From positions 1 through 64,000 of the forward strand of contig LVLI01000066.1 of the NCBI GenBank assembly GCA_001687465.1: 64,000 nucleotides of DNA, read 5' to 3'. This DNA is from Halocafeteria seosinensis. Its lineage: Eukaryota. The notes beneath the pieces were generated by a model. It searched no databases, was not told where the DNA came from, and saw nothing but the letters and a program-made list of their open reading frames with translations. Shown one piece after another: positions 29,923 through 64,000 of this stretch (the first letter of the stretch is position 1; every line of letters starts with the position of its first letter). The position numbers were made by a program, and so were the translations under genes.

Positions 29923-31743
29923 TCAGCAAATAATATCGTCCAAAGAGAAAATATCACTCATACCAGGTCGATGATGCGCGCTATATATATAGCCTCGGCA
30001 TCCCATGAACGTCTCCAAACTAGACAAATACCGAAAGCCAGAAGATGTAATTGTTGACTGACTGCATTGATGCATGAGGAGCCACGTCAACCTTGCCATG
30101 TGTTCAAAGGCAGAATCTGTAATTGTTGACTGGTTGCAGGATCCCATGTCGAGTGACTTCAAACTGGACAAGTGTTGAAAAGCAGCATCCGTTATTGTTT
30201 GTTGATTGCATTTACTCATATATAGTGACGTCAAATTGGACAAATATCGAAAAGCGGAATCCGTGATTTCAGGCTGGTTGCAACGCCCCATATCTAGTGA
30301 CTCCAAATTAGATAAATGTCCAAAAGCAGAATCCGTGATAGTTCTTTGATTGCATTGATTCATACCCAGCAATGTCAAAGTTGCGAAGTGCTCAAATGCA
30401 GAATCCGTAATAGTCGACTGGTTGCAGGATCCCATGTCGAGTGACTCCAAATTGGACAAATGTCGAAAAGCAGAGTCCGTGATAGTTCTTTGATTGCATT
30501 GATTCATGTCGAGCCACGTCAACCTTGCCATGTGTTCAAAGGCAGAATCTGTAATTGTTGACTGGTTGCAGGATTCCATGTCGAGTGACTCCAAATTGGA
30601 CAAGTGTTGAAAAGCAGCATCCGTTATTGTTTGTTGATTGCATTTACTCATATATAGTGACGTCAAATTGGACAAGTATCGAAAAGCGGAATCCGTGATT
30701 CCAGGCTGGTTACAACGCCCCATATCTAGTGACTCCAAATTAGATAAATGTCCAAAAGCAGAGTCCGTGATAGTTCTTTGATTGCATTGATTCATACCTA
30801 GCAATGTCAAAGTTGCGAAGTGCTCAAATGCAGAATCCGTAATAGTCGACTGGTTGCAGGATCCCATGTCGAGTGACTCCAAATTGGACAAATATCGAAA
30901 AGCAATATCTGTAATTGTTGACTGAGTACAGTCGTCTATGTTCAATGACGTTAAATTTGACAGGTATTGAAAGGAAGAATCTGTGATCGTCGACTGATCA
31001 CAGTAGCTCATCTCTAGTGATTTCAAACCGGACAGATGCTGAAAGGCCGCAGATGTAACCGTCGATTGATGACAACCAACCATCTTCAGTGTCGTCAAGT
31101 TGGACAAACGTTGAAACGCAAAATCCGTTATCGTAGACTGACGGCAGCGACTTATTTCCAGTGACTTTAAGTTCGGTAAGTATTGAAACGCCGCAGACGT
31201 AACCGTCGATTGATTGCAGTCTATCATGTTTAGTTTTGTCAAGTTAGACAAATGTTGAAACGCAAAATCCGTTATTGTGAATTGACGGCACCAGCTTATT
31301 TCCAGTGACCTTATGTTCTGCAGATGTTGAAAGGCAGAATTGGTCAGTACTCTAGTAAGACATCGCATGCCCACTGACTCCACCGCTGGAGGAAGACGGG
31401 CTATCACAGTGTCCCAGGTTTCCTCTGGACCAGCTACTTCTCTGTCGACTAGCTGGACATGACCGGAATAGTTTGGAAACAGTAAGGGACTAGTATGGCT
31501 ACGGAACTTCCAAGAACACTTTGGCCATGATAGTGAGTGTATCCACGCTTCCCCAGAATCACTTGCCTTCCCGGAGATGTCCAGGCGACCTCGTTTTCGC
31601 CTGTTGCAACGAGTATTGCCAGCGGTGCCAATTTTCCTTGAAGCTATTGTACGCCAGTAGTCTGCGACCGTTTTCTGAAGATCCCCGCCAACGTGGTGTT
31701 GCAACCATGTCTGCAGATAGACCTGGAGCACCAATGCCATCAT
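29923..31743 (-). CDS. Intronless LRR protein (606 aa) with ~18 tandem 24-aa cysteine-containing LRRs
   Basis: Repeat consensus LSNLxxLxMxxCNQxTITDSAFxH. About 135-aa N-terminal cap shared with the pseudogene at 1510. C-terminus looks degenerate (QSTVTAS remnant beyond the stop). Confidence 0.85.
   Translation of the reverse strand: MMALVLQVYLQTWLQHHVGGDLQKTVADYWRTIASRKIGTAGNTRCNRRKRGRLDISGKASDSGEAWIHSLSWPKCSWKFRSHTSPLLFPNYSGHVQLVDREVAGPEETWDTVIARLPPAVESVGMRCLTRVLTNSAFQHLQNIRSLEISWCRQFTITDFAFQHLSNLTKLNMIDCNQSTVTSAAFQYLPNLKSLEISRCRQSTITDFAFQRLSNLTTLKMVGCHQSTVTSAAFQHLSGLKSLEMSYCDQSTITDSSFQYLSNLTSLNIDDCTQSTITDIAFRYLSNLESLDMGSCNQSTITDSAFEHFATLTLLGMNQCNQRTITDSAFGHLSNLESLDMGRCNQPGITDSAFRYLSNLTSLYMSKCNQQTITDAAFQHLSNLESLDMESCNQSTITDSAFEHMARLTWLDMNQCNQRTITDSAFRHLSNLESLDMGSCNQSTITDSAFEHFATLTLLGMNQCNQRTITDSAFGHLSNLESLDMGRCNQPEITDSAFRYLSNLTSLYMSKCNQQTITDAAFQHLSSLKSLDMGSCNQSTITDSAFEHMARLTWLLMHQCSQSTITSSGFRYLSSLETFMGCRGYIYSAHHRPGMSDIFSLDDIIC
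30028..30891 (-). repeat. Near-identical tandem duplication of a 432-bp (six-LRR) block
   Basis: Block 30891-30460 is repeated as 30459-30028 (e.g. AGCAGCATCCGTTATTG at 30181 and 30613). Protein blocks differ at only a few residues until the last repeat. Confidence 0.95.
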
Positions 31744-35274: not shown

Positions 35275-36125
35275 GCTTCAATTGACGTCTCCGGATATGA
35301 GTAAGTGCGGGCATTTAACTATTACGCTTTCGACATCTGTGCAATTTGAAGGAGCGACGTATTTACAATTGCAACCAGTCCGGAATCACCGATTCCGCCT
35401 TGCAATACTTGTCAAATTTGACGTCATTGGATATTGATAGATGCTCCCGATTAGCAAGTACGGGGGCTGCCGTCCAATATATGTACCCTTGAAGTCGCTA
35501 CGCATCTGGAACTGCAACCAGTCCGGGATCACTAATTCCACCTTTTAATACTTAACTGATTCGACGTCACTGGAAACAGATGGATGCAAGCAATTAAAAA
35601 TTACTAGTGATGCCTTTCGGCACCTCTCCAACGTGGTTTTACTAAGCATGAGTAACTGCAACCAGTCAGAGATTACAGATTTTGCATTTCAACGCTTGGC
35701 AAATCTTAGATCGCTGGACATTTCTCAATGCAACCAGCGAACCATCACAGATTCTGCTTTCCGACATTTGTTTAATCTGAAGTTGCTAGCGATGCGGGAT
35801 TGCATCCAGTTGGAGATCACCGATTCTGCGTTCAAACACTTGTCAATTTTGATGTATCTGAGTATGAGTCGATGCAACCAACAAACAATTACAGCTTCTG
35901 GCTTTCGGCACTTGTCGAATTTGAGGTCACTGGAGATACGTGAATGCAATCAACGAACAATAACAGATTTCGTCTTTCTGCATTTGTCTAAGTTGGAACA
36001 GTTACGTATGCGATCTTGTAACCAGTCGGAGATCACGATATGCGTCGTTGCAATCAAGGAACTATAACAGATTCTGCCTTTCAACACTTGTAAAATCTGA
36101 TGGAACTACTTATTGTGGGTTGTGA
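35275..36125 (+). pseudogene. LRR-family pseudogene fragment (24-aa CNQxxITDxAF repeats)
   Basis: About 11 recognisable repeats, partly in ORF 35633-36067, with stops (TAA 35546-35548, TAA 36091-36093) and frameshifts. No recognisable N-terminal cap. Confidence 0.85.
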
Positions 36126-37065: not shown

Positions 37066-38424
37066 ATGAATATCAAGAGTCGTCCACCTTCAGTCTTCGC
37101 GAAACTGATACAGCTTATCGTTATTTTCATTGGGAAATGGAACACCTGTGCGTCGTCGAACCTGGTGGACTTCCGATACATCAAGTGGGACATCACAGGA
37201 ATCAGAGATGAAAGCGATCATGGCGATATTTGTGGGCTCTGTGGATTGTGTGTTCAGGCAAGCAAATTTCATCTGAAAAATGGAGACTCTCATCTGTCTA
37301 TGGGGAGTTTCGAGAACCCAGGTGGTTCCCAGTCCGAGTCGTTCGACGAAGATCCTAGCAATCTTGGTGGCTCCGGCAAATGGGTGGACCACAACTTCAT
37401 GGAGAACGAAAAAGGTTCTGTAATAATATCCGATGCTGGAGCGACGTCATCCTACGTCTTTGATCGATATGAATGGTTTACGGGAGGAGACTGCGAGGTA
37501 AGAGATCCTATCTCGTGGAAGCTCTACGGAAGCAACCACAAGGAAAGTTGGATTTTGCTCGATGAGAGAACCAATAAAGATGTAACTACTGCTAGGGAAG
37601 AGTCAGTTGGTGTATTCGATGTCAAACCACCGACTCCGACGCCTTCACCCACCCGTACACCGACTTCCACACGAACGGGGACCCCAAGCCACACGCCAAG
37701 TCACACTAGAACTCCGACCTCCAGTAACACGAGATCTCCAACTTCCAGTAGAAGCAGAACCCCTACTCCAAGCAGGACGGCTACTCCAAGCAACACGCCA
37801 AGCCGTACTCCGACCCACACGAGAACACCAACTTCCAGCAGGAGTGGAACTCCCACTCCGAGTAAGACGGCAAGTCCAAGCAATACGCCAAGTCGTACCT
37901 CGAGTAGCTCGACGACCCCGACAGCCAGTAGGAGTGGAACTCCCACCCCGAGCAAGACAGCAAGTCCAAGCAATACGCCAAGTCGTACCTCGAGTAGCTC
38001 GATGACCTCGACGGCCAGCAGGAGCGGTTCACGCACTCCGAGCACGACCATCACGCCAAGTACCACCCCAAGCCAAAGCCCGAGTAACACGAGGACTCCC
38101 ACTTCCAGCGGTAGCGCAACACCGACTTTGAGCGGGACCACAACTCCAGGTAGTACGCCGAGTCCGACGCCGAGCGGAACGAGAACGCCGACTAACAGTC
38201 GGAGCAGATCACCAACGAACACAGCAACAGTTAGTCCTACATCGAGTATTACTTCAAGTGTTACCCCTACTCACTCGGCAACCGTCAGCCATACTCCAAC
38301 TGGGACTCCATCGTCCAAAGAAACGGCCACGCATACTAGCACTCCTTCGCTTACACCTACATATGCGACATTGAAACGACTTGCCAAAGAGATTTCTGCT
38401 CAAAGAGCTAAAAGGAAGTACTAA
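37066..38424 (+). CDS. Probable secreted protein: discoidin/F5-8 type C (CBM32)-like domain plus T/S/P-rich mucin-like stalk
   Basis: Hydrophobic N-terminus (FAKLIQLIVIFIG); motifs FRYIKW, NPGG, KWVD, RDPISWKLYGSN..W.LLDER; about 240 aa of TPSxTP repeats with a 90-bp duplication (37840 vs 37930). No TM or GPI signal at the end. Confidence 0.65.
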   Translation: MNIKSRPPSVFAKLIQLIVIFIGKWNTCASSNLVDFRYIKWDITGIRDESDHGDICGLCGLCVQASKFHLKNGDSHLSMGSFENPGGSQSESFDEDPSNLGGSGKWVDHNFMENEKGSVIISDAGATSSYVFDRYEWFTGGDCEVRDPISWKLYGSNHKESWILLDERTNKDVTTAREESVGVFDVKPPTPTPSPTRTPTSTRTGTPSHTPSHTRTPTSSNTRSPTSSRSRTPTPSRTATPSNTPSRTPTHTRTPTSSRSGTPTPSKTASPSNTPSRTSSSSTTPTASRSGTPTPSKTASPSNTPSRTSSSSMTSTASRSGSRTPSTTITPSTTPSQSPSNTRTPTSSGSATPTLSGTTTPGSTPSPTPSGTRTPTNSRSRSPTNTATVSPTSSITSSVTPTHSATVSHTPTGTPSSKETATHTSTPSLTPTYATLKRLAKEISAQRAKRKY

Positions 38425-47049: not shown

Positions 47050-48291
47050 ATGGCGGAAGTGGTCCAAGGGGTAGCGAAAAGTGACGTCAGACGCTCCCTG
47101 CATTGGGTGTTCAAAATCGGCAATCTCGGCCGTGCGTTGCGATTTTACAATGAAGTGTTCCACATGAGGGTTCTCCGGAGCGAAGAATTCGCGGAGGGGT
47201 GTGCCGTACGTAGCCGCATAGTTTGTGTGGGGAAAATTCAGCTTACCCTTGTTCTACGCGATGTGGAAGTCTGCAGGCTACCTGTAATGGCCCGTACGCC
47301 GGGCGCTGGAGCAAGACCATGGTGGGGTACGGCCCCGAGAAGGACAATTTCGCGTTCGAGTTGACCTACAACTACGGAGTGGACCACTACGAGAAGGCGG
47401 ATGATTTCCGGTTCATCGCCATTCGTTCGGACGAAACGGAGCAAGAATTCGCCCCGTTCCGACGAGAGTACCAAATTCGGAAAGCCAAAGAACTGGGGTA
47501 CAACGTAATCGAAAATGAGGAAGGAACTTTTATTGAAGGCCCGGATCAGTATTGCTACAAACTAGTGAATACTGCCAAGAAACAGTCACCCGAGGATGAG
47601 CATCCGACTTCCACCAGTGTGCATGAGCCTTGCTTATTCGTCTCGATCTATGTGTCAGATTTGGATAAGAGTCTGAAGTTTTGGAGAGATCGTAAGTGTA
47701 TTCCTGTATGCATAGTCTTAAAAGATATGTGATATGGTTCTGAGTTGCTCTGGTACAGATCTTGGTCTGCGGCAGTTAGATGATGTTGCTGGCAAGACTC
47801 CGGCCACCAAGAAGCATGGCGAAGGTGTAATGCTTGGGTACGATAAATCGCAAACCTTATTAGAGCTTGTTCCCCTTTACGGGGAAGATGGGGAACCAGT
47901 CAGCAAAATCGAGCATGGGAGTGCTTACGGTCGTATCGCCTTTGCTACTCGAAATGGTCCTCAGCCTATTTATGACGAACTGAAGAAGCTGGATTTCGCG
48001 GGTGGTGGAGTCATGAATGATCCTATCACCCTTCAGACTCCAGGGAAAGCCGATGTAGTTGTTACCATACTACAAGACCCAGATGGTTATGAGATTTGCT
48101 ACGTCAATGAGGATGGGTTTTACGACCTCAGTGCAACAAAACCTGCGGACGATTTCATTGACTGGGATTCTCGTGCTTACTACGGCGCCGATGGCAATCC
48201 TCCTCCGAGTGTGAGGCGAAAACAAGAAATCAAAGCACGGAGAGAGAGAGAAGCTCGGGAAAAAGAAGCTGCTGAACAAGAACGTGCATAA
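47050..48291 (+). CDS. GLOD4: Glyoxalase domain-containing protein 4; exons 47050-47205, 47277-47691, 47759-48291
   Basis: RRSLHWVFKIG, EEFAEGC|ATCNGPYAGRWSKTMVGYGPE..FAFELTYNYGV, AYGRIAF, LQTPGKADV.V.ILQDPDGYEIC. Confidence 0.92.
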
Positions 48292-48429
48292 TTTGACGAA
48301 GGTGGGGCGAATACCAGTTTAAGTGAACAATACACTGTTGAATCGTTTATGTGTATCAAGGAACGCGTCGTGTCGAATTTTTTACGCGTTTATCTTCACA
48401 CTTGCGAGAGGGATGAATGGAGATTGCAC

Positions 48430-49068
48430 CTAATTTCCTTTATATTTTGTCCGTTTCTTCATTTCACTCTTCACGTTAACATGACTCTTCTGGCAACATT
48501 TACATTTCCAGCAATTGTGCATCTGTGCCAAATCAAAACCAATATGCGGTATATATGCGGTATGTGTTATGCTCACCAGCATATAGGTGGCAAAAGCACA
48601 AACTGTGCTTCGTGCCAACACTGTTCGACAGGACGAATGATTTCCTCGTCGTTGGGTTCCTTACACCGTCTCCGAAAACGTTTCCGATACTCGAAGTTTA
48701 CAATACCTCGGTCTTCCACTAAGATGCTGCAGTTGTCCCAACTGGCTCTCGCCAGCATTTTCCACAACATCCTTTCAGCAGAAAGAAATGACGTTGTTGT
48801 CTTGAGCATTTTCTAGCAATCCATTGGATGTTAGCCGCAAGCCAAGGTTTTCGTGTTTAAACATTGCTAATGTGAGACTACCGGGGCTCTCCGTAGAACG
48901 TTGGCAATCGGGTCGTCGGAGGCCCCTGGTGAATTCTAAAGGACTTCGGCCACCCAATTCATCGGCAGCATGGATAGACATCCCAATTCTTTGCGCTCCT
49001 ATGAGAACTGTCCAAAGCCATGAACCATTGTTCGCGCAATGTAGTGGTGTCATATTGTTATGGTTCAT
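48430..49068 (-). pseudogene. Degenerate fragment of the NACHT genes' N-terminal domain
   Basis: WTVLIG..SPLEF..FKHENLGLRLTSNGL and YRKRFRRRCKEPNDEEII match WTELIG..CPVEF..KRENYGLRLTSSAL and YRERLRRWCNNPSDEEIL of the NLR-like genes. Split across frames. Confidence 0.8.
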
Positions 49069-49204
49069 TTAAGACACAAGTGATGTTCATTTGATAGAAA
49101 TTACCTGTACGAATTAATGCGTAGTTAAATGCGGACGATACAACTTTAAAAACGTACTGTACTGACGCTCTTCTAACTGACAAGCATAAGGAACAAGTAA
49201 ACGT

Positions 49205-50347
49205 TCACCACTTCCCGGTTATAGCCCGCTCAAATCGGAAAGAATCATATGAAAATTGATCGCATCCAAGCATCTCTAATTTTCGCAATTGAGATAGCTC
49301 AGAAATATGTTGGACGGCATCATCTGTAATGGTGGACTGATTGCACCCTTGCATATCCAATTCGTGTAAGTGGGATAGCTGACCAATATATCGGAAAGCA
49401 AAATTACCAAACGTGGTTTGATTGCATCCTGAAAAATCCAACGTTTGCAACTGGTATAATTCCCCAATATATTCAAACGCATCATCTGTGATAGTGGATT
49501 GATGACACCTGGCCATCCTCAACTTTTTCAAATGGTATAGGCGACCAATATGCTGGAATGCATTGTCTGTAATTGTAGTTTGATTGCACCCTCCCATAAA
49601 CAGTGTTTGTAATTGGGATAGTTGAGCAATGTGTTCAAAAGCTTCATCTGTAATGGTGGATTGACAACACTCTTCCATACACAATTCTTGCAATTGTGAT
49701 AGTTCAGCAATATGTCGGAAAGCATCATCTGTAATACTGGACTGATTGCACTTTTCAAGGTTCAATTTCTGCAATCGGGATAATTGCCCGATATGCCGAA
49801 ACGCATCATCAGTAATGGTGGATTGAGTGCACCATCTCATATCCAATCTTTGCAGTTGGGTCAATTTACCAATATGCCGAAAAGCATCATCAGTAACGGT
49901 GGAGCGGTTGCATAAAGATATATCCAATATTTCAATCCTAACCCCCAGGTTATTGGCATTACCATTCTCTGGTATCGAGCTGGATGCATCCACGTTGTCG
50001 CTAGACTGATGGTGACGATGATGATCAGTCTCACCTTCCACTCTGGCTGCTTGGGAGATACTAGAGACTGTTGAGTATGAAGGCAGTGCTTTGAATAGAT
50101 TGTCTACAATAGTCTTCGCATTCACCTCAACCATATGGACTCTATTCTGGAGTTGTGGATGAACAATATGTTCAGTTAGCTCACAAGGAAGTGAAACGAG
50201 GTTATCCAGACGAGCTATCCACTTCGGTTGGATTCTTAGCATATGCTGCCCGTTTATGGTCGTTTTCGTAGGCATGACAAAGTTGATACATTCCGGAGAG
50301 TCCACTACACAAGCCGCATGAAGAGGTAAGAGTCCCGATAAAGAAGT
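49205..50347 (-). CDS. C-terminal ankyrin + LRR module (nine 27-aa repeats), in frame with the upstream NACHT ORF beyond a single TGA
   Basis: Reads TSLSGLLPLHAACVVDSPECINFVM (ankyrin core), then a cap, then LQxLxMxxCNQSTITDDAFxHIGxLSx repeats. The tracked ORF start at 50305 is GTG. Confidence 0.8.
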   Translation of the reverse strand, partial: TSLSGLLPLHAACVVDSPECINFVMPTKTTINGQHMLRIQPKWIARLDNLVSLPCELTEHIVHPQLQNRVHMVEVNAKTIVDNLFKALPSYSTVSSISQAARVEGETDHHRHHQSSDNVDASSSIPENGNANNLGVRIEILDISLCNRSTVTDDAFRHIGKLTQLQRLDMRWCTQSTITDDAFRHIGQLSRLQKLNLEKCNQSSITDDAFRHIAELSQLQELCMEECCQSTITDEAFEHIAQLSQLQTLFMGGCNQTTITDNAFQHIGRLYHLKKLRMARCHQSTITDDAFEYIGELYQLQTLDFSGCNQTTFGNFAFRYIGQLSHLHELDMQGCNQSTITDDAVQHISELSQLRKLEMLGCDQFSYDSFRFERAITGKW

Positions 50348-53300
50348 TCAAGAAACATCGTCTTCATCAGATGCTAGCTGCTTTAGGCAATTTACATTTC
50401 CGCTCAAGGCTGCTGCAAACACAACAGTCTCACCTTCGTCCGAGACTTCGCTCGCACTAGCTTCATAGTCTCTTAACAAAGATGCTACTAATTCGGCATG
50501 GCCATTCAAAGCCGCCAAAAACAATAAAGAATAATGTTCCTGTTGCGTGAACAATCGAAGGGGCTGCACATGCAGTTTGCCTACCAAGCTTTCAAGAACA
50601 TGCTGCGAGCCGTGCTTTGCAGCTAGGATTATGTGCTCTTCGCTCAATCCAACAAACTCGCGAGAAAAACTCTCCGAACAGCAGGACGCAATTGTTTCCA
50701 AGCAACGTGCTGCATTTGCTGTGACCGCATCATTGATAGTTAGGTTGGCCACGTAAGGCGTGGCAACGATTGCCTGCTTCAGTTCCGTCTCACTGAGTAA
50801 TGTTTTCACACAGCATCCACTGTCTTTTTCTAAACAAAACCGGAAGCAATGTAAAATAAACTCCTGCATATTCAATTCGTTCGCTTTACAAGTCATATCC
50901 TTCCATTGCTCTACATGGAGCAATTCGGCTAGACAGTTTCCACTGTCTTGCTCTAAACATTCTTGGAAACAGTAACTGACTAACCCTTCGAGAGAGTATC
51001 CCCTATGCTCACATAATAAACTCCTCCATTGAGTTGCACTCAACAATTCTAAGAGGCAGTTTCCGCTGTCTTTTCTTAAGCATAAGTGAGCGCAATAAGT
51101 GATGAACTCCTCAAGAGAACATCTCTCCTCTTCGCAGAGTAGACGTCTCCATTGAGTTATACTCAGTAATTCTACAAGGCACTTCCCGCCGTTTTTCTTT
51201 AAACATAGCTGAAAGCAGTGAGTAATGAACTCGTCTAGGGAATAACCCTGGTGTTCACACAGCAGGCATCTCCATTGAGTTGTGTTCAGCAGTTCAACGA
51301 AGCACTTCCCACGATCTTGCTCTAGGCATAGGTGGAAGCAGTAAGAAATGAGCCCTTCCTCAGATGCGTACCCTATGTTCCGACAAAGAAACGTTCTCCA
51401 TTTCTCTGTGCTCAACAAATGAGCGAATCCTTTGCCCTTATCTTCATCTATACACCACTGAAAGCAAATCTGAATGAACTCCGCTTCACTGGATTCCACC
51501 CGGTGACAAAGCCATTGTCTCCATTCGTCTACATTAAGCAATTCCTCAAGACACTTCGCCCTATCTACATCTATCGACAGCTGGAAGCAATGAAAGACGA
51601 AGTCGTCCATATTGCACCCCTCTCGTTGACACAACAGATTGGCCCATTGCTTTGTACTGAGTAAAGCCCCAAGACAATGCCCGCTATCACCCTCCAGGCA
51701 CATTTGGAAACAAAGGTTGACAAAATCCTCCCTGCTCAGCTGCCCATCCTGATAGAGCGGTTCTGTACATGGCGTCTGAGAAAGTAAATATTCGAAAATT
51801 GCACCTCGATCAAATCGAATGGATTCCTGGATTAACTCTGCATCTAAGTCCTCTTCGCTGCAAAGGCGTTTCACGCACTTTAGCTGGCCCGTTCGCACTG
51901 CTGCTCTCAGAGGCCCGAGAGTCAGGCATTTATCATCCCGGAGGGGCACCTTCGTTTGCTCCAGAGCGTCCACGCAGTCCATGTGCCCTAAACTGATGGC
52001 TAAAACATAAGGTGTGAGTTCCGTCTCTTCCTCAACGGACAGCTCCTGGTCCAGCCAGCATCCTATCTCGTATTCTTGTGCCGGACAGACTTCCTCGAAG
52101 ACTAACTTTATACATTGATAAGGTAGCACCTCATCGATAGCTGCATTGCACGTATACAATGGTAGTATTGTGTTTGGCCTGTTCAATGCAACAGCAGCCC
52201 ATACAGGGGAGTAACAGGTTTTTTCACCCTTCCTTGAAAACTGCAAGCTAACATCTTTTCCGCTATCGTTGAGCATATACAGGTGGTCCAAATTTTCGTC
52301 CTGCAGCGCTTGCAATAATTCTTCAAAGCAATTCAAATCGCATTTAGCGAAATTTACGCTCTCTCTTGGATCCAATGACACCCCCAGAAGCTGTGCTGTT
52401 GCTTCTCCAATATCGCCGTCACACCAAATCAAGAGGGACGACAGGGAGTAGCTGCAATTGTGTTGCCCGGCAACTTCCATGGATTGTCGCTTGATATGTG
52501 CACATGTTTCTGACGGTTTATCGAAAGCCAGTAACAACTGCAGACACGATGCACAACCATCTCGCGATGCAATGTATATAGCTGACCAGGCAAGGTCACG
52601 CATCAAATGAAAATTAGTTTCTAGGGTATTCAAAAGAGTTCGACAACAGTCAAAGCGTTTTCCTGTGACAGCTCCAGTAAGCGCAATTTGGTGCAGCGAC
52701 ACTTGGTTCACGGACCGTTCGGATTCATCTTTGCTCGTCTCTAAAATCCAGCGAATAAGACGGTAGCTACCGACTTCTCCCGCCGAGAAAAGCAGACGCT
52801 TAACTTCGGGTGTACTAGACGCGATTGCACTCAACGATAACTGTTTCAAACGGCTAGGCTCTACTTCCAATAGGACTTGAACAAACCTGATACGCCCATT
52901 CAGCTCCGTAACAAGTGAGCTGTATAAACAGATCAGAAGACGTGTGGTCTCCTCTACCGATTGCTCTTCACTGAAGGCGCTAACGAAGAACTCCAGAAAT
53001 CTGTCTCCAAAGCGTAAGCCCTCATTGATCACGTCTTCTATCTGGGAAGTACCAATAGTGTTAAATCGTCGACGAGCAAGGAAGTACTCCCAGTACGACC
53101 GGTGAATAAACTCGTAAGTTTGTTTCTCATCTCCTGTGGGAGAGACTACTTGCATTAATCCGACACCCTCGAAAAACTCACTCGCTTCGCGTATTGCTTT
53201 CAACGGTCCTCGAAAGTCTTTGCGATGATTCTCAAATGCTTGTCGTAACACCTTCAGCGGAACCTGTTTATCCGAACAGACGTCATCTCTCTCTAGGTGA

Positions 53301-56300
53301 GAAGCTACCTCCTCCAGGATCGTCAAAGCAACCTCATGGGGATCATTATCTGCACGGACTGTGTGTGACCTCCACCATTTCTCCAATAGATGGTCCACTG
53401 TTCGACTATAGATCGGAGTCACACGGACGTCTTCTGCCGTGGATTCAAAGAAGCTACCTCCGCTCTTCACATACGCAAAACAAATTCCTTCAAGAAGAGT
53501 TGGATTAGCGCTTAAAGCATTCAGTCGATCATTGAGTCGGAAAGACAATTGTAGAGTCCGACAGAGCCTCGAATAATCACTTCTATCAGAATAACATTCC
53601 AAAGCGTAGTGCTCAATGAAACTCTTGCGAGCCTCAGAAGTAAGCCCCTCCACCTCTACAAAATAGCCGATATACTTATTGACCAACGGAATCCCATTGC
53701 GATGACTTGCTGTATGACTTGAGAATCGCGATGATACGAAAACGAAGGCTTCCATCTGTCGAAGTACTGAGAAAATTCTCCCACCGGCAGCTCCAGGTTC
53801 GAATGGATTATTTCGTACTTCATCACATCCATCTAGGAGAAAAAGAACACTGGGTCGTTTGTCGCGCAAGTGTTGCACAATTCTTATGGCTTCATCCGTG
53901 GTGATATTTCGTGCGGCAACATTGTCATCGAAGGTTTCCTTAAGATTCACGAAGCTCTTGGAGAGGAGCATCCCCAAACAAGTCTCTCCGTCAGCGTCTG
54001 GGTAATGTTTTTCCACATGTACCAGATGATACAGTTGAAGATATATTACCCAACTGAAACTATCTTTCAACACGCGACCTATTTCGTTTTCCTCCGAATT
54101 CCCAAGAGACCACGACTGGGCAAAATGCTTGAAGAGTGTGGTTTTCCCAACGCCTGCTTGCCCTTCGAAGAGGATCCACTTCCTCCTGGAATTTGAGAGC
54201 GCAAATAAATCTCTCGCTTCCACCTCGCGCTTTCTTCCCGACGCTCCAGAGTGTTTGTCCCGCAGTGTCAATTTCTGATAGCACCTATTCAATTTTGGTC
54301 GCTTGGTTAGGTCCACAGCTTCATCTTCACGGTGTCGGAAAAGTCGATGGAGTCTCCAACTTCGATAAAGCATATACAAATTATCTCGCTTATACAATGG
54401 GGGCAATTTGTTCCAGTTAAATTTCACTGTCGAAGTTGTTCGCGAAAACGTAAGTAAACGATCGTGTATAATTCCCGCATGAACTCGTCTACTACACTCA
54501 ATTTGAAACTTGAACGGGACAGAAACGGTGTCGTCGGCGCTAGAGTAGAGAGAGGTTTCCGTGGGACGCAGACTGTGCTGTTCTGGGCGTCGAAGTAACT
54601 GTCCCATGGAAACTCGGTGGGCAGCGGTAGAACAGAATTTCACCGGACTGTCATCACACAATACAACAAAAATATCTAACATTGGGACAACATCCCTCCA
54701 AAATTGTTGTTCGTCTACCGACCATATTGGATTCCTGAAGAAATTGCTTTCTACAGATTCTATGACGGGGAAACTCAGCTTTCCCTCAGGAGCGAGAACT
54801 TCGCGAAGAATTTCTTCATCACTGGGATTGTTACACCACCGACGTAAGCGCTCGCGATATTCCGCCTGCTGGAAGACACGCTGGTCCTTCGAAGGAGCGG
54901 ACAGTTGGCAGTACTGCAAATTGTCGCTCAATTGTTTCATGTAGAATCGGTTTCGCAATCCAATAACAGCCTTCAAATAGAACTCAACAGTTCCACCCTC
55001 AAGACCATAGCCTTCCACTAACGCACTCGAAGTGAGCCGGAGACCGTAGTTTTCCCTTTTAAGTGTCTCTAAGTTGAGATGTCGTCGGCCGCGCAGGGCT
55101 CGCCGGCGATCAGGCTCCCCGTTTCGCTGGGCGGTAAATTCGACTGGGCAATCGTTTTCCGATTGACAGGCATGCAGAGAAATTTGAATACTCTCCTCGC
55201 CTATTAGTTCGGTCCACGGATTTACTAGTATATTTCCTGTAGAATACCATGGATTATTCGCAGGCTCATTTACTATATCACTCCAGTGCATGTCTACGGA
55301 AATAAAATCCGGGTCAATCTGAGCTTCAGCATAGTTCAGAGACAAAGACAAGGGAGGGTCTCTCAGTCTAACAGTATTTGCCGTATAAAATGGTGACGAG
55401 GCTATCTTCTTGCACCACTTGCGGAAAGTATCACGCTTTAAATTTAGGGATGCACTTGGCTCCAGCTCTTTCGGCGATATCACTTTACCCAAGCAAAACA
55501 CGCTTCGGCACCAGCCCTTCCTCTTAATCACAAACTGCTGCCGATCTTGCAGCCTTGTTTCGTGACCCACTTCATGTATTTCTGGTGGATCACCGCGGCC
55601 ATTCTCCAATGCCGAAGCGAACCAAAGTGCAAAGCGGCTTAGGTCAGCCGTTATACCCTCCTCTCTTAACCAAAGGCAAAGATGGCGGGCTTTATGCCCC
55701 CATTTACGAAAATAAGAAAAGACAGACACGTAAGAACATTCTTGTTCGGACCAGATAACTAGAAGTTGAGAATTGGCTTCAATATACTGACGCAGCAATT
55801 CTGGACGGTAATCACTGGGAGAGTGCAAAGAATTCGGGTCCGAATGAGCATACGCAGTGGAATCTAAGTCCAGTTTTCTCGCTACGCGATACGAGAAAGG
55901 GTCCTCTTTGCGAAACTGATAGGTTACACAGGTTTTCCATAACCAGCGTCCAAGAATTCCTAAGAAGCCGCTTCCTCCTATCATACCCAACACCCAGTTC
56001 GCCCAATTCGGCAAGGATGATGTTTCAATCAGATGCCTTCTATGCACTGAAGCAAATCCCTCTGGCACAGCCTTCTCCATAGGATGAGAAACAGAATGGC
56101 GTAGAAATTGCGACTGTGTCCTCCAGGAACCCGAGGACTGCTCTTCCAGTTGAGGGATATCCGGTGGTGTCGTATCCTCCGTCCCACCGGCCGCAACGGA
56201 TATGACCACCGCAACAAGCACGATAATAATTAATATCAACTCAGGTACTAATGCTTCGCTTCTCATCCTCTCTGCCGGCTTTGTTGTTATATATGCTGAC

Positions 56301-56326
56301 CGTGGGAAAACGATGGTTGTCCTCAT
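50348..56326 (-). CDS. NLR-like STAND NTPase 1: signal peptide, TM helix, unknown domain, NACHT, ankyrin-like and 41-aa repeats
   Basis: Walker A GQAGVGKT (~54163-54140), Walker B LFLLDGCDE, sensor FVSSR, EVEGL, NPTLL, WHD YEFIHRSYWEYFLA, ankyrin cores (TPYVLAISLGHMDCV, LFLAALNGHAELV). First ATG 56326, alternative 56266. Intronless. Confidence 0.88.
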   Translation of the reverse strand: MRTTIVFPRSAYITTKPAERMRSEALVPELILIIIVLVAVVISVAAGGTEDTTPPDIPQLEEQSSGSWRTQSQFLRHSVSHPMEKAVPEGFASVHRRHLIETSSLPNWANWVLGMIGGSGFLGILGRWLWKTCVTYQFRKEDPFSYRVARKLDLDSTAYAHSDPNSLHSPSDYRPELLRQYIEANSQLLVIWSEQECSYVSVFSYFRKWGHKARHLCLWLREEGITADLSRFALWFASALENGRGDPPEIHEVGHETRLQDRQQFVIKRKGWCRSVFCLGKVISPKELEPSASLNLKRDTFRKWCKKIASSPFYTANTVRLRDPPLSLSLNYAEAQIDPDFISVDMHWSDIVNEPANNPWYSTGNILVNPWTELIGEESIQISLHACQSENDCPVEFTAQRNGEPDRRRALRGRRHLNLETLKRENYGLRLTSSALVEGYGLEGGTVEFYLKAVIGLRNRFYMKQLSDNLQYCQLSAPSKDQRVFQQAEYRERLRRWCNNPSDEEILREVLAPEGKLSFPVIESVESNFFRNPIWSVDEQQFWRDVVPMLDIFVVLCDDSPVKFCSTAAHRVSMGQLLRRPEQHSLRPTETSLYSSADDTVSVPFKFQIECSRRVHAGIIHDRLLTFSRTTSTVKFNWNKLPPLYKRDNLYMLYRSWRLHRLFRHREDEAVDLTKRPKLNRCYQKLTLRDKHSGASGRKREVEARDLFALSNSRRKWILFEGQAGVGKTTLFKHFAQSWSLGNSEENEIGRVLKDSFSWVIYLQLYHLVHVEKHYPDADGETCLGMLLSKSFVNLKETFDDNVAARNITTDEAIRIVQHLRDKRPSVLFLLDGCDEVRNNPFEPGAAGGRIFSVLRQMEAFVFVSSRFSSHTASHRNGIPLVNKYIGYFVEVEGLTSEARKSFIEHYALECYSDRSDYSRLCRTLQLSFRLNDRLNALSANPTLLEGICFAYVKSGGSFFESTAEDVRVTPIYSRTVDHLLEKWWRSHTVRADNDPHEVALTILEEVASHLERDDVCSDKQVPLKVLRQAFENHRKDFRGPLKAIREASEFFEGVGLMQVVSPTGDEKQTYEFIHRSYWEYFLARRRFNTIGTSQIEDVINEGLRFGDRFLEFFVSAFSEEQSVEETTRLLICLYSSLVTELNGRIRFVQVLLEVEPSRLKQLSLSAIASSTPEVKRLLFSAGEVGSYRLIRWILETSKDESERSVNQVSLHQIALTGAVTGKRFDCCRTLLNTLETNFHLMRDLAWSAIYIASRDGCASCLQLLLAFDKPSETCAHIKRQSMEVAGQHNCSYSLSSLLIWCDGDIGEATAQLLGVSLDPRESVNFAKCDLNCFEELLQALQDENLDHLYMLNDSGKDVSLQFSRKGEKTCYSPVWAAVALNRPNTILPLYTCNAAIDEVLPYQCIKLVFEEVCPAQEYEIGCWLDQELSVEEETELTPYVLAISLGHMDCVDALEQTKVPLRDDKCLTLGPLRAAVRTGQLKCVKRLCSEEDLDAELIQESIRFDRGAIFEYLLSQTPCTEPLYQDGQLSREDFVNLCFQMCLEGDSGHCLGALLSTKQWANLLCQREGCNMDDFVFHCFQLSIDVDRAKCLEELLNVDEWRQWLCHRVESSEAEFIQICFQWCIDEDKGKGFAHLLSTEKWRTFLCRNIGYASEEGLISYCFHLCLEQDRGKCFVELLNTTQWRCLLCEHQGYSLDEFITHCFQLCLKKNGGKCLVELLSITQWRRLLCEEERCSLEEFITYCAHLCLRKDSGNCLLELLSATQWRSLLCEHRGYSLEGLVSYCFQECLEQDSGNCLAELLHVEQWKDMTCKANELNMQEFILHCFRFCLEKDSGCCVKTLLSETELKQAIVATPYVANLTINDAVTANAARCLETIASCCSESFSREFVGLSEEHIILAAKHGSQHVLESLVGKLHVQPLRLFTQQEHYSLLFLAALNGHAELVASLLRDYEASASEVSDEGETVVFAAALSGNVNCLKQLASDEDDVS
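50792..51709 (-). repeat. About 7.5 tandem 41-aa (123-bp) Cys/Trp-rich repeats inside NLR 1
   Basis: Consensus FQxCLxxDxGxCLxELLxxxQWRxLLCxxxGYSLEEFIxxC; period 123 nt (51337 vs 51214). Confidence 0.9.
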
Positions 56327-57305: not shown

Positions 57306-58881
57306 TCAATAGTGGCATTGTCTGCTGCCTAGTTCTACGGATTTTGTGTTACCGCGGGTGACGTATGCTGTCAGGGGGTTATTCGTTGGATACGTGGTTT
57401 TTTCCTCATCCGTTTGGTTTCCGCTGACCCCACTGTCATCGTCATTGCTTGCCATTCTATTTCTGAGCACCATGGCAATTCCGATAGCAGCGGCGATTGC
57501 TAATGCCGCTGTAAGTCCGATACGACTTGACCCGATACTCTTTTCCTTATTGGATCGGTATATAGACAAAAGTCCGTAGTACTCCGTACTACTACCGCTG
57601 AACCGGTAGAATCCTGAACGGACAAGGCATACCGACCTTCACTATCAGTTTCGAAGCCTCTGCCAGAGAAGGCGGAAATCCGTGCATGTTAATGGTGGCC
57701 GATTATGTCTCAGTGCATTATTTGTAGGACGTACGTTCCCACAAACTCTTCACATCCAGCAGGAAAGTTAGATAGCACATTCCCTTTCTGACAAATACTA
57801 ACGGGACCTCCATTTTCGTCCAGGGTCTCCAGATTTATCGGAATACATCTTTCTTCAGAGCTGCTCGACACACTCCATACTTACCTGTGTTTCGTCAGAT
57901 TTACTCGGGTATGGTTCCTTTGTCTTATCATCTCTCACGGGAGACTCATCTGACATCATGATGAGCGCCGGTATCACCATTACGACTGTCGTCGTCTTGA
58001 GTAGTTCTCTGTGGGACCTCTCGGCTGGATGGGACGGAAGCATATTCTAACAGATACAGAACAGCTTAGCTTTCGGCGACACGCATTGCGAACTTACGCT
58101 CCACATCGAACGTCGTGGACGGCACCTCGGCACCGCCATTTTGGCAAGAACCTTCTTCGATTTGGACCTTCTCTTGTTTGAACTTAGAAAGATACAAGAC
58201 GTTGCGCCAGATGACGTTGCGACTTCCACGGTGTACCACGTAATACCGTTGTACGTATACGACCCTTTAAATCTGCCTACTTGTTTCACAGCGACATAGA
58301 GTATATCTTGAACCGTGTTCGAACGCTTCCGTACCAGACTTTGAATCAATTTATGGAAAGTGAATGAGTAAAGTAAAGTACATTTACCTTAGCAGTTACA
58401 TTTCAAATTGTGTCTCCTACGGTGAAATCTCAGTGCCAGATACTATATCGTAACGATCATTCAACTCTCCCGATCTAGTGTCGTATCCGACAGACAGAGA
58501 ATTTGTGTCCTAGAGGACATGCCAACGACGTGTGGCGTTGCGCAACCAAGCCTACAAGGCTGACTGAGTACCAGCGCTACCTGAATCAATTTATGGAAAG
58601 TGAATGAGCAATGTAGAGTACATTTACCTTAGCAGTTACTGTTCAAATTGTGTCTTATACGGTGCAATCTCAGTGCCATGCTATATCGTAACGATCATTC
58701 AACTCTCCCGATCTAGTGTCGTATCCGACAGACAGAGAATCTGTGACATAGAGGACATGCCAACGACCTGCGGCGTTGTGTAACCAAGCCTACCAGACTG
58801 AGCGCTACCTCGACCAGATGGTAACTCTGAACGCACTGCACTGCAAGGATGACTTTCAACTTTGCTTACGGTAAAACGCAC
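57306..58881 (-). pseudogene. Degenerate multi-exon gene for a probable type-I membrane protein between the two NLR-like genes
   Basis: C-terminal TM IGLTAALAIAAAIGIAMVL followed by RNR and a short tail. Splice donors CAG|GTAAGT (~57884) and AAG|GTAAAT (58387, 58627). Upstream frames carry stops and frameshifts. Boundaries uncertain. Confidence 0.4.
58342..58810. repeat. Tandem duplication, 240-bp period
   Basis: TGAATCAATTTATGGAAAGTGAATGAG starts at 58342 and 58582; both copies end in AGCGCTACC. Each contains a minus-strand exon plus short-intron unit. Confidence 0.95.
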
Positions 58882-59290: not shown

Positions 59291-59620
59291 CCGTCATCAT
59301 ATATATATTGCTCCTACCGGAAGACGTGTCTGCTGCAGGCTACGCTAAGCCGTGTGAGGGGTGAACCCTACCCGGAACCGGTCCAATATCACGTGGTGGC
59401 GCATCAACGTGACTGACAGTTTGGCCGTCATCAGCTTGCGGATCATCTGGTGTGTATTGGTATTGCTTCTACCGGAAGACGTGTCTGCTGCCGTGTGCGG
59501 GGTGAACCCTACCCGGAACCGGTCCAACATCTTCTGGTGGCATCGTACAAGTACAAGCTGTACAAGTACAGTATAGTTCTCGCTCGCGTGGTGTATTTCT
59601 CCAGGGAAAGCTCTCCGAAG
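59291..59620 (+). repeat. Local tandem duplication (~135-155 bp unit) of a signal-peptide-encoding fragment; third copy at 38490
   Basis: CTACCGGAAGACGTGTCTGCTGC and GGGGTGAACCCTACCCGGAACCGGTCCAA each occur twice; encodes ..YILLLPEDVSA|A..NPTRNRSNITWWRINVTDSL. Confidence 0.85.
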
Positions 59621-59818: not shown

Positions 59819-62800
59819 ATGGTCACTGATAGCACCGAGAGTCGATTAAGAATGGAGAAGAGAGTATCCTCGGTATACAAATCGATGCTGGTTTGCATCG
59901 TAGCTTTGCTTGTGGCAAGTGGTATCTCCTCAGCCATGGCCACGGCAGCAGAAGACGAGGATATCCAGGAAGAGCAGCTATTCATGAGTTCCTACTCCCG
60001 ACCACCAACTTATTTTCTTCGACATTCCATTCCTCCTCGAGAGGAGAAGAAGCAACAACATGCGCCAGTGCATAGACGAAATCTGATTGAAACGTCAGCT
60101 CTGCCAACTTGGGCGAACTGGCTGCTTGGCGCCCTCGGCGGAAGTGGCTCTGTCGGTTTGGTAATCTTGTGGATATGGAAATCCTGTTTAAAGTATCAGT
60201 TTCGGAAAGAAGATCCTTTCTCATATCGTGTGGCCACGGAACTGGATTTGGACTCGACCACTTATGCTCCTTCCAATCCGGATGCCCAGCGCTCTCCCAA
60301 TGAATACCGTCCAGATCTGTTAGTCCAATATCTTCGAGCCAATCTACAATTGTTGGTGATTTGGTCCAGAAAAGAGGGTTCAAGTATATCTTTGTTTGAT
60401 TATTTTCGTAAATATGGAGATGACGCGCGTCATCTTTGTCTCTGTTTCGGGAAGAAGGGCACAACGGCTGATCTAAGCCACTTCGCATCTGCGTTCGCGA
60501 CTGCATTGAAGAATGGTCAAGGTGACCCACTTGAGATGCATGAAGCAAGTACGGACACAAGGCTTCAAGGACGGCAGCAGTTTGTCCTGAAACGGAAAGG
60601 GTGCTGTCGAAGGATGTTTTGCTTGGGTAAACTCATTTCACCGGAAGAACTACAGCCGCGGGCATCTCCAACGTTGAAGCGTGACGTTTTCCTCCGATTT
60701 TGCAAACTGATAGCCACATCGCCCGATCACTCGGTAAGTACAGCTAAATTGAGGGATCCTCCTTTGTCAATATATCTAGACTGTACTGACACTGAAATGG
60801 ACCCGGATTTTATTCCTGTGGACATTGCGTGGAGGGGTATGAACGACCTCTCCAAGAATCCGTGGGAAAACATGGGAAGTCCCTTACTGATCAATCCGTG
60901 GACCGTCCTGCTAGGTGACGAAAACATTCAAATCTCTTTGTATGCCTACCATTCGGAGGAAAACTGCCCCATTGAATTTGCTACCAAGAGGAACGGGCAA
61001 CCTGATAGGCAACGTGTCACTTCCGGCCAAAGTCATCTTAACTTGGCGACATTTAAGAGAGAAAGCTGGGGTCTGCGGCTCACTTCGAGTGCACTAGTCG
61101 AGAGACATGGTATTGAGAATGGAAACATCGTCTTCCATCTGAAGGCCACAATTCAGAATCGCGAAGAATTCCAGCTTAAGCAACTAAGCGAAAATTTATC
61201 GTACTGCACACTACCGGCTCCGTCAATGGATCGACTTGTCTTCAAGCAGGCGCAATATCGTGAACGCTTTCGACGCTGGTGTAACGATTCCAGTGATGAA
61301 GCAATTCTTCAGGCAATCCACGCTCCTCGATTAAAGTTGAATATCCCTACCATCGAGTCTGTAAATAGCAATCTCTTAACGGATCCAATAGGGTGGGCAG
61401 ATAAGAATGAAAAGCTGTTCTGGACCGGTATCGTTCCATTGTCAGACATGTTTGTTCTGTTTTGTGACGATAGTCCAGTTGAATTCTGCGATGCAAGCAC
61501 CAATCGAGTTCCTATAGAGCGACTAGTTCAATGCCCGGAGGAGTACAGTTTGCGTCCTACCGAGTCCTCTTTATACACCGTCGACAGCGTATCTGCTCCG
61601 TTCAAGATTCAGCTTGAATGCAATGACCAAGTTCATTCCGAAATAAGACAACGGAAGTCATTCACGGTTGGTCAGAGCAGCGTTAACGTAATATTTGACT
61701 GGAGTAAGCTACCTCCTCTATATAAGTGGGATGAGCTTACTCTGCTCTATCGAAGTTGGAGACTTCACCGTCTCTTTGGGCAGCAGACAGATGAGGCTGC
61801 ACACCCAGTCAAGCGACCGAAATTGAATAAATGCTATCAAAAGTTGACACTACGAGACAAGTACTCTAACAAAACGTCAGGGGAAGGGATCCAGACGAAG
61901 AATTTATTTTCCCTGTCAAATCCCAACAGGAAGTGGATTCTCTTCGAAGGAGAAGCAGGAGTTGGGAAGACCACCTTATTCAAGCATTTTGCTCAGTCAT
62001 GGTCTCTCGAAGAGACCGAGGGTAATGAGATAGGTGAGGTGATGAAGGATAAGTTCACGTGGGTACTATATCTTCAAATGCATCATTTGATACATGTAGA
62101 AAATGAGTACGCGAAAGCTGATGGGGATACATGCTTGGGGATTCTTCTCTCCAAGAGCTTCATGAAGCTTAAGGAAACCTTTAGCGACGAGGTTGCTGCG
62201 TGCGATATTACCGCGCAGCAAGCAGCGTAAACAGAGTGATATTCTTTTCCTCCTGGATGGGTGCGACGAAGTAAAAACTAATCCATTTGAACTTGGTTCA
62301 CTCGGTGGGAGAATGTTTTCCGTTCTTCGCCAAATGGGAGTGTTCGTTTTTGTATCGTCGCGATTCTCGAGTCATACGGCGAGTCGTCAGGATGGTATCC
62401 CCTTAGTTAACAGGTACTTTAGCTCTTTTGTAGTGGTGGAGGGACTCACACCGGAGGCTCGCAAACTTTTTGTGGAACAATATGCTCAAGAACGTTATCC
62501 AGACAGCAGAGGTAACCAACTGCATCTTTCCCAGACACTGCAGCTCTCCTTCCGGCTCAACGATCGGCTTGACTATCTCGGTGCTAATCCGACGCTCCTG
62601 GAAGCGATATGTTTTGTATATGTAGAGAGCTCAGGAAGCTTCTTTGAATCTACAAAGAAGGACATTCGCATCACGCCAATTTACGCTCGGACTGTGAAAC
62701 ATTTGGTGCACAAATGGTCGACGATATCATGCTCGTCTTCACCCGACGATGATCCCCTTGACGTGTCACTAAAAATGTTAGAGGATGTAGCCTTACGACT

Positions 62801-64000
62801 GGACGAAGATGGAGAAAATCTTCATGAGGAGAACGTTTCCACTGATAAAGACGTGTCTCTACATCGTTTGCAAAAGATCTTTGCAAAGTATCGCGAGGAA
62901 TTTCGGGGACCACTAAAGTCTGTAGAGCGGGTGACCGAGTTTTTCGAGCGTGTTGGTCTGTTGAGGATTGTGTGCCGCACGGGTGACGCAGATCAAACCT
63001 ATGAATTCATTCATCGTTCTTACTGGGAATATTTTGTGGCTCTAGGGGAATTTAGAAAGAGTAAGTCTCGCCCCGCCAGATACCTTATTCAATCTGAGTC
63101 TCGACTTTGGGATCGGGTTTTCGACTTCTACGTCAGCATATTTAGCGAACAGCAAAACATTAACACTATTACTGATTTGCTTCATAGCTTACATGGTTTG
63201 CTATGTGGGGAGCATGTATCCGGTTGTACACCAGATCAAGGCCCCCATCGGTTCACCGAACTTTTACTTGAAGTGCATCCAGATAAATTGGAAAAAGTAT
63301 CGCTTCACATGATAATGTCGGCTTCAGACGAAATACGATCGCTTTTGTTTTATGCAGGTGAAATAGGCAGTTTTCGTCTTGTTAGCTGGATCCTAGCTCA
63401 GACTGCTCAGCGTAACTATCAATGTGGCGAGAAGGAAACCTATAGCGAGCAAAGAGCACTTGTCCAAGTTGCACTCGCGGGATCTTCGAAAGGAGGACGA
63501 TCTGCTTGTTGCCGAAGGATACTGGATACCATGGATACTGATTTTTATCGGGTTGAGGAAACTTCGTGGTCAGCTATTTACATAGCATCGCGAGAAGCTA
63601 GTGCCCCGGGAGCTGCCGCATGTTTGCAGTTGCTACTGGCTGAAGCTAAGCTGTCCGAAACCCCGGAGTTTATTAAACAGGAATCTATGAAAATCGCAGG
63701 AGAACGGAGTCACGAACGTTGCGTCGCCCTGTTCTTAATCTGGTGTGACGGTGTTGTAGGTGAAGTCGCTGCACAAGTATTGGGTGACGCCTGGATGTCG
63801 ATGGCCCCACAAAAAAGAATAAATGCCGCAAAGAGTGAACTTAATTGTTTTGAAGAGTTAGTACAAGCGTTGCAACGGGATGATGTGGAACGACTTTACG
63901 CACTCAATGATGGCGGAAAGGATGTAAGCTTACAGTTCTCTCGAAAGGGACATGAGAATTGCTATTCTCCCGTATGGATTGCTGTGATATTAGACAGACC
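59819..64000 (+). pseudogene. NLR-like STAND NTPase 2, paralog of NLR 1, with one frameshift at ~62227; runs off the window
   Basis: ORF 59819-62230 is collinear with NLR 1 through Walker A (GEAGVGKT, 61949-61972). A second frame from 62226 (RKQSDILFLLDGCDEV..NPTLL..YEFIHRSYWEYF..CYSPVW) is stop-free to 64000 by manual translation. May be a recent pseudogene, an allele, or an assembly error. Confidence 0.85.

Follow-up and report, generated by a model that had tools for sequence, protein, structure and literature searches.

Predicted RxL processing site and predicted single transmembrane helix at the N-terminus of two divergent NACHT-type NLR genes

A pair of divergently oriented paralogous genes, A (P0001) and B (P0002), in contig LVLI01000066.1 of Halocafeteria seosinensis (positions 1 to 64,000, hereafter the window) raises the question of why proteins of the nucleotide-binding leucine-rich repeat (NLR) type should begin with a hydrophobic leader, followed by a short spacer, an arginine-x-leucine (RxL) motif and a further hydrophobic helix. 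With moderate confidence, we propose that A and B encode single-pass membrane NLRs in which RxL would be a routine maturation site of the secretory pathway, serving to remove a lumenal pro-piece of ~50 residues.

The leader, the spacer, the HRRxLIE motif and the helix were located in both genes where the initial annotation had placed them, its end coordinate 56266 being the second ATG of the A frame (Met21), which is likely the true start and the point from which A and B begin to align. The W-A-N-W...G-G-S-G...W-x-W-K pattern it had described is likewise present in both. The motif reads HRRHLIE in A (56044-56024, minus strand), as part of a 12-amino-acid (aa) block running to 56009, and HRRNLIE in B (60071-60091, plus strand). 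A HMMER search with aa 1-700 of A against 1.84 billion representative proteins returned four matches, among which P0003 (798 aa, 41% identical, EukProt transcriptome entry GECG01014196.1) was the sole outside homologue found with a complete N-terminus. The accession prefix of P0003 would tentatively assign it to H. seosinensis, a bicosoecid stramenopile, although the prefix does not occur in PMC4987115. P0004 is a fragment of 304 aa on a 1322-nucleotide (nt) contig, P0005 is an internal fragment, and P0006, a low-complexity repeat match, was dropped as a homologue. The family as found comprises five sequences; the motif can be checked in three of them and is missing from one doubtful fragment, P0004.

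Conservation of the motif was compared with that of the adjacent spacer, with block boundaries that were set after the alignment had been viewed. A and B are identical at 10 of 12 positions of the block vs 13 of 47 in the spacer (Fisher p = 7e-4), with proportions of nonsynonymous differences (pN) of 0.07 and 0.45, respectively. When P0003 was included, 6 of 13 block columns were invariant vs 7 of 46 in the spacer (p = 0.027), the kept residues being H, R, L, T, S and P, and the alignment of the motif did not change under L-INS-i. Moreover, the distance from the motif Leu to the first Trp of the helix is 8 residues in all three complete N-termini, each of which shows a predicted signal peptide and then a short stretch ending in R-X-L. 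The leader itself is poorly conserved (2/27 columns invariant). The spacer, described initially as poorly conserved, is so in overall A-B identity, yet it is unevenly conserved and holds an FLRxS motif that had been missed (4/5 columns invariant in A, B and P0003). With its spacer of ~50 aa, the lumenal part is small, lacks Cys and is acidic, and thus looks more like a pro-piece than a folded ectodomain.

The initial annotation had classed the motif as a conserved RRxLIE site of the PEXEL type (RxLxE). The RxL core was indeed kept in 3/3 sequences; the aligned site in P0003, however, reads RNLFATS, with Ala where PEXEL has Glu. Because this aligned Glu is lost, the family consensus is, for the sequences at hand, R-x-L-x-x-T-S and not RxLxE, and the PEXEL label proved too specific, as RxLxE/Q/D is not conserved across the family. 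A second copy of RxLxxTS (RQLEETS) was found upstream in the lumenal part of P0003, 26 residues farther from the helix, so that three of the four copies (one each in A and B, two in P0003) bear Glu. Such a second copy arose in 0.25% of 200,000 shuffles of the P0003 lumenal part. RxLxE by itself is frequent, being present in 4.6% of all 60-aa windows of 12 long open reading frames (ORFs) of the window, A and B included.

The predicted transmembrane (TM) helix was assessed by insertion free energy (dG), calculated on a position-dependent insertion scale, and signal peptides were judged by hydropathy. The helix gave -0.44, -0.02 and +0.10 kcal/mol in A, B and P0003, respectively, and the next non-leader segment of these proteins gave 2.40-2.91. 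The best segments of five soluble proteins of the window ranged from 2.26 to 6.75, and two more scanned ORFs gave -1.23 (a small ORF with a hydrophobic helix of its own) and 2.00. Basic residues (K/R) numbered 5-7 within 25 aa on the C-terminal side vs 1-3 before the helix, and 15 of 29 columns across aa 132-160 of gene A were invariant in the three sequences. Since a secretory leader precedes a TM-grade helix with a basic C-terminal side, we infer from hydropathy and charge that the spacer would be lumenal and the NACHT domain cytosolic, the latter under either reading of the leader (signal anchor or cleaved). The helix contains 6-9 small residues, and its hydrophobic moment is 0.04-0.05, with no charged or polar face and no acidic face in A or B. 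It had been called Gly-rich, and its TM character is borne out by the dG values, whereas its Gly content falls from 6 in A and 5 in B to 2 in P0003; what is kept is a small-residue stripe, S-xxx-G in all three and A-xxx-S-xxx-G in B and P0003. In these terms it is an ordinary single-pass helix that carries a stripe for packing, and it is not amphipathic. A structure prediction with two copies of aa 100-145 was uninformative (score 0.02).

According to the preferred reading, signal peptidase would remove the leader, and the helix would halt transfer with its basic side in the cytosol, resulting in a type I topology. A protease resembling either the RXL/site-1 protease (S1P) type or the plasmepsin-V/ASP5 type would then cut after the Leu, leaving a stub of 8 residues; we infer this cleavage from conservation in three sequences, from the duplicated copy and from precedent. 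The mature protein would lack a real ectodomain, so that sensing would be cytosolic, by the 41-aa repeats, ankyrin repeats and leucine-rich repeats (LRRs) of the C-terminal part, at the face of a post-endoplasmic-reticulum membrane such as the plasma or food-vacuole membrane. Oligomerisation of NACHT would cluster the membrane-proximal region of ~570 aa, and the small-residue stripe would let the helices pack, the helix acting as a tether and not as an inducible executioner.

Several observations weigh against this proposal. Each of the three long members is cut short, with A stopping ahead of its last ankyrin repeat and the LRRs, and B and P0003 just before Walker B, and no intact functional copy was present among the family members found. 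Only three sequences have a complete N-terminus, and two of these are close paralogues (A and B, 56% identical over 810 aa, are not independent evidence). P0004 keeps the block that follows the helix, while its first 40 residues as called show no leader, aligned RxL or helix, although a mis-called start is possible. RxL is a motif of low information, occurring in 33% of shuffles of the P0003 lumenal part. The diatom precedent considered below may be distant from the host lineage. Finally, the expectation of the initial annotation that the motif would exceed its flanks in conservation was confirmed on the lumenal side and failed towards the cytosol, where 147 of 540 columns are invariant (p = 0.20) and 21% of 13-aa windows attain six invariant columns. 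As conservation of the block does not exceed that of the cytosolic part, a structural role beside the helix would also account for it.

This last point leads to the alternative that survives best, to which we give a modest probability, namely that the NLR is single-pass and uncut, and that R-x-L-x-x-T-S-x-x-P-x-W caps the helix structurally or serves in sorting or partner binding. The conserved block continues unbroken into the helix (T, S, P and W being invariant), is about as conserved as ordinary folded parts, and centres on a motif that is frequent by chance. Nevertheless, the second RxLxxTS in P0003 is more readily explained by duplication of a protease site than by a helix cap, and the order of leader, spacer and RxL fits the RXL pro-domains that have been described.

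A wider proposal would have the NLR licensed in the secretory pathway, with RxL trimming followed either by intramembrane release of the NACHT-ANK-LRR sensor in the manner of Notch or by formation of a helix channel, and with the truncated copies acting as membrane-tethered decoys; we regard it as unlikely, and its two branches fare as follows. In the first, the RxL cut would initiate regulated intramembrane proteolysis, as for Notch and ATF6, and a presenilin- or rhomboid-type protease would release the cytosolic NLR or move it elsewhere. Intramembrane proteases prefer substrates with a short stub and a helix rich in small residues, and the 8-residue stub (3/3), the 6-9 small, helix-loosening residues and the basic C-terminal flank would all suit them. 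Small-residue helices are, however, common in single-pass proteins, and the known substrates of S1P and the site-2 protease (S2P) are type II, whereas A, B and P0003 are predicted to be type I. The sites of A and B do fit the S1P consensus RX(L/I/V)Z, as given in the cited part of PMC11231238. On balance, we consider this route quite improbable.

The second branch, in which loss of the pro-piece and NACHT oligomerisation would bring the helices together as a channel, with death or depolarisation of the cell as the outcome, develops the suggestion of the initial annotation that the helix resembles an NLR executioner helix, and we consider it improbable. Small-residue stripes permit tight helix bundles, a stripe of this kind is conserved here, and the NACHT motifs are intact in A. 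Nevertheless, the low hydrophobic moment, the lack of a charged or polar face and the mere two Gly of P0003 argue against a pore. The helix, which starts at aa 98-116 behind a secretory leader, would be constitutively inserted and lies ~590 residues from NACHT, a distance that includes a predicted beta-sandwich, whereas executioner helices, in the part of PMC6944444 cited, form the very N-terminus and are exposed upon activation only. The resemblance was not upheld. Least probable of all is an uncleaved leader acting as signal anchor in a two-helix hairpin with RxL in the lumenal loop, as in SREBP. In its favour, the leader of A has considerable length, strong hydrophobicity (dG -1.83) and as many as 26 residues ahead of it. 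Against it, that of P0003 is short, classical and weakly hydrophobic (dG +0.90) with a single, clean (-3,-1) cleavage site at residue 24, and the leader is poorly conserved.

With regard to the remainder of the proteins, A and B encode NACHT-type NLR proteins resembling immune receptors, and their features are compiled in the table. Walker A and Walker B are intact in the gene A NACHT, sensor-1 is present, a winged-helix motif lies at aa 1073, and a weak NLRC4 match (expect value, E, 0.006) extends across the winged-helix stretch. The C-terminal repeat sensor of NACHT-type NLRs is represented in A by ankyrin repeats (ANK), the LRRs being in frame only past one TGA. The (-3,-1) cleavage-type sites of the gene A leader are at aa 43-48. 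Between the NACHT module and the ankyrins lie the 41-aa Cys/Trp-rich repeats, a candidate variable sensor.

Table. Features of genes A and B in the window (KD, Kyte-Doolittle hydropathy; dG in kcal/mol)
Feature	Position	Strand	Properties
Gene A (P0001)	50348..56326	-	Intronless ORF, 1992 aa; probable start Met21 at 56266
Gene A hydrophobic leader, aa 27-46	56189..56248	-	KD 3.09, dG -1.83; predicted signal peptide or signal anchor
Gene A FLRxS motif, aa 74-78, in lumenal spacer	56093..56107	-	4/5 columns invariant in A, B, P0003
Gene A H-R-R-x-L-x-x-T-S-x-x-P block	56009..56044	-	Predicted RxL processing site; Leu99 8 residues N-terminal of helix
Gene A predicted single TM helix, aa 108-130	55937..56005	-	dG -0.44, hydrophobic moment 0.04; conserved S-xxx-G small-residue stripe
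Gene A basic juxtamembrane block, aa 131-160	55847..55936	-	Strongly conserved; predicted cytosolic by positive-inside rule
Gene A ~540-aa region without family match	54227..55846	-	No Pfam match
Gene A NACHT NTPase, aa 718-907	53606..54175	-	PF05729, E 2.9e-12, above cut-off
Gene A eight tandem 41-aa Cys/Trp-rich repeats, aa 1529-1856	50759..51742	-	Period 123 nt; no Pfam family
Gene A ankyrin repeats, aa 1900-1989	50360..50629	-	PF12796, E 1.6e-19
Gene A in-frame TGA splitting ankyrin array	50348..50350	-	Single stop; in contigs X1, X2, X4 without alternative letters
Gene A continuation past TGA	49205..50347	-	380 codons: one more ankyrin repeat, linker, LRR array; LRR_14/LRR_4/LRR_8 matches
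Gene B (P0002), divergently oriented paralogue of A	59819..62230	+	803 aa up to premature stop
Gene B hydrophobic leader	59885..59941	+	Predicted signal peptide; KD 2.30, dG -0.07
Gene B FLRxS motif, aa 66-70	60014..60028	+	
Gene B RxLxxTS block	60071..60106	+	Leu89 8 residues before helix
Gene B predicted single TM helix, aa 98-120	60110..60178	+	dG -0.02
Gene B net 23-nt loss vs A	62215..62240	+	Frameshift and stop immediately before Walker B; X1 contig agrees gap-free
Gene B remainder	62226..64000	+	Open for at least 590 codons up to window end; 53% identity to A aa 823-1383

The ~570-aa region between helix and NACHT is likely an effector or adaptor, and it may be a new effector module. 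Known NLR effector domains (death fold, TIR, CC, HeLo, enzyme) were looked for in aa 94-700, for which Pfam, NCBIfam, PADLOC and PHROG gave no match. A low-confidence AlphaFold2 (AF2) model of aa 321-480 (55366-54887) resembled an Ig/cadherin-like beta-sandwich, with predicted local distance difference test (pLDDT) values of 50-70 in parts; its best structural match (VIA; Z 5.9, root-mean-square deviation 4.8, 122 aligned) is below trust level. AF2 pLDDT amounted to 33 with a single sequence and 38 with three sequences, and a Foldseek search gave no match at E<=0.001. An internal duplication (aa 318-480 / 508-645) that is visible by eye was not significant (hhalign probability 0.9%).

As far as the truncation of gene A is concerned, a seemingly stand-alone LRR ORF (50275-49205, minus strand) shares the gene A frame, with one TGA between them, and when X was placed at the TGA codon the Ank_2 match of gene A spanned the stop, with an extra Ank repeat after X. 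The shared frame and the match across the stop indicate that gene A comprises 2373 codons of NACHT-ANK-LRR architecture, interrupted by a single premature stop, as judged from the reading frame. Read-through and a nonsense lesion were both considered, and a recent nonsense change is the simplest reading. An Rfam scan of 47500-50500 gave no match, the selenocysteine insertion sequence (SECIS) element included. As for an intron that would remove the TGA, 24 GT-AG pairs could skip it in frame and none was singled out; an intron is unnecessary because the ankyrin repeat runs through the stop. A general code with TGA as sense is unlikely, given that the standard code leaves a dynein ORF of 4441 aa open.

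Between A and B, dN was 0.29 vs a dS of 1.19 over 784 codons, which indicates purifying selection on both genes during their divergence, until recently. The public contigs that carry the lesions of both A and B stem from one study, and X1 may be the source of the window. B and P0003 end at most ~16 codons apart, through different lesions; chance, a transcript artefact in P0003 and selected half-NACHT decoys are the candidates for these near-coincident ends. The best reading of the copies seen is that they are truncated members of a birth-and-death family.

Further searches added no members to the family. Word-based protein searches gave nothing at E<=0.001, and these are weak blanks, as one missed P0003 although it was in its own query. 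DNA scans detected a related locus in 0/592 and 0/37 candidate stretches of metagenome contigs and in 0/143 of prokaryote genomes. The ESM Atlas held no usable match for aa 20-700, and P0003 gave generic NACHT clusters only, under 0.9. Contigs aligned to the motif region at 80% likeness revealed no further paralogue, with a cutoff so insensitive that it missed even B. Within the window, 6 of 40 ORFs start hydrophobic, and no other secretory ORF combined a leader with RxL except one likely spurious ORF of 116 aa.

In the surroundings, a high-copy dispersed repeat with two internal copies, to which dozens of contigs align, lies just upstream of gene B (59300-59540), and a 238-bp tandem duplication (90% match; 58342-58801) lies between the divergent paralogues, as does a small ORF of 87 aa (57306-57569, minus strand) that encodes a single, strongly hydrophobic helix (dG -1.23) and may be an exon. 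LRR ORFs with a TITDxAF-type repeat as in the gene A tail are found at 29923-31743 and 35648-36067 (minus strand), and several other contigs match the LRR part of A at lower identity, which suggests an expanded LRR family. A 452-aa ORF (37066-38424, plus strand) may begin with a leader, contains a long mucin-like repeat of Thr/Pro/Ser and has no Pfam match. The window is eukaryotic and intron-poor, and it also encodes an E2F and, without introns, a dynein heavy chain of 4441 aa that matches a cytoplasmic dynein-2 domain (14725-28050, minus strand), which makes a flagellated host likely.

Comparison with known systems places the N-terminus of A and B nearest to RXL-domain single-pass proteins of diatoms and parmaleans. 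In the cited part of PMC5525289, the signal peptide of the diatom protein silicanin-1 is followed by 30 aa that end in RRL, then by one TM helix and a cytosolic tail, and in silaffins an unknown protease removes the RXL domains; SAP1-3 show the same order of parts as silicanin-1 (PMC5647440, PMC10328945). A and B share the predicted signal peptide, the short pro-region ending in R-X-L, the single TM helix and the cytosolic C-terminal part. In contrast, silicanin-1 and the SAPs have short tails and still carry a large lumenal domain beyond RXL, whereas in A and B only 8 residues separate RxL from the helix, and an NLR of >1,800 aa makes up the cytosolic part. No sequence relationship exists between them, and a role in silica is not implied.

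With PEXEL (Plasmodium, plasmepsin V; RxLxE/Q/D ~35 residues past the signal) and TEXEL (Toxoplasma, ASP5; RRL), as outlined in the excerpt of PMC7355975 cited, the sites have in common that, past a signal sequence, R occupies P3 and L occupies P1, and A, B and the upstream P0003 copy read RxLxE; if cut, they would work in a similar manner. Unlike PEXEL, Glu is lost at the aligned P0003 site and the sites lie ~50 and not ~35 residues past the leader; unlike TEXEL, none of them is R-R-L; and, unlike the cargo of either, A and B would be membrane-tethered cytosolic NLRs, with nothing pointing to export into a host. The RXL pro-peptide of the diatom single-pass proteins or an S1P-type RxxL/RxLx site would be the closer precedent. 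With respect to the S1P consensus RxxL/RxLx (PMC13082318, PMC11231238; S1P/SKI-1, plant SBT6.1), A and B fit both RxxL and RX(L/I/V)Z, the aligned P0003 site is RXLZ and its upstream site RxxL. Unlike S1P substrates, A and B are predicted to be type I, and the conserved T-S after the site is outside the S1P consensus.

As regards the NLR side, the ZAR1 alpha1/MADA helix, according to the part of PMC6944444 cited, is at the very N-terminus and forms a funnel after activation only. The helix of A and B likewise lies upstream of a STAND NTPase, but behind a signal peptide and far from the NTPase; it is not at a free N-terminus and shows no hydrophobic-outer and polar-inner faces. NLRs are regarded as cytosolic except for predicted multi-TM forms of anthozoans and sponges, in which NACHT proteins with N-terminal TM segments have been proposed to be membrane-bound (PMC5094078, PMC12909245). 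These have three to five N-terminal TM helices, and the excerpts of their descriptions cited here mention no signal peptide, pro-piece or RxL, whereas A and B, which belong to a protist, combine a single helix with a novel region of ~570 aa and an ANK-LRR tail. The literature covered described no NLR combining signal peptide, RxL and a single pass, with the reservation that supplements may list such genes and that subscription papers were not covered; 'NACHT' and 'NLR' do not occur in the main text of PMC5447177 and bioRxiv 2026.06.25.734631, nor does 'NACHT' in PMC4987115.

The biology of NLRs in free-living protists has been little studied. If the proposal is correct, NLR signalling in a phagotrophic cell would be linked to a defined membrane through a single-pass NLR that is directed by a signal peptide and carries a pro-piece, and RXL processing would extend beyond biosilica proteins and parasite effectors, providing a non-parasite substrate for finding the RXL protease; the narrowness of the family (five sequences) and its truncations limit this value. 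What would be new here is the combination of a membrane-tethered NLR with an RXL-type pro-piece, each kind being known separately.

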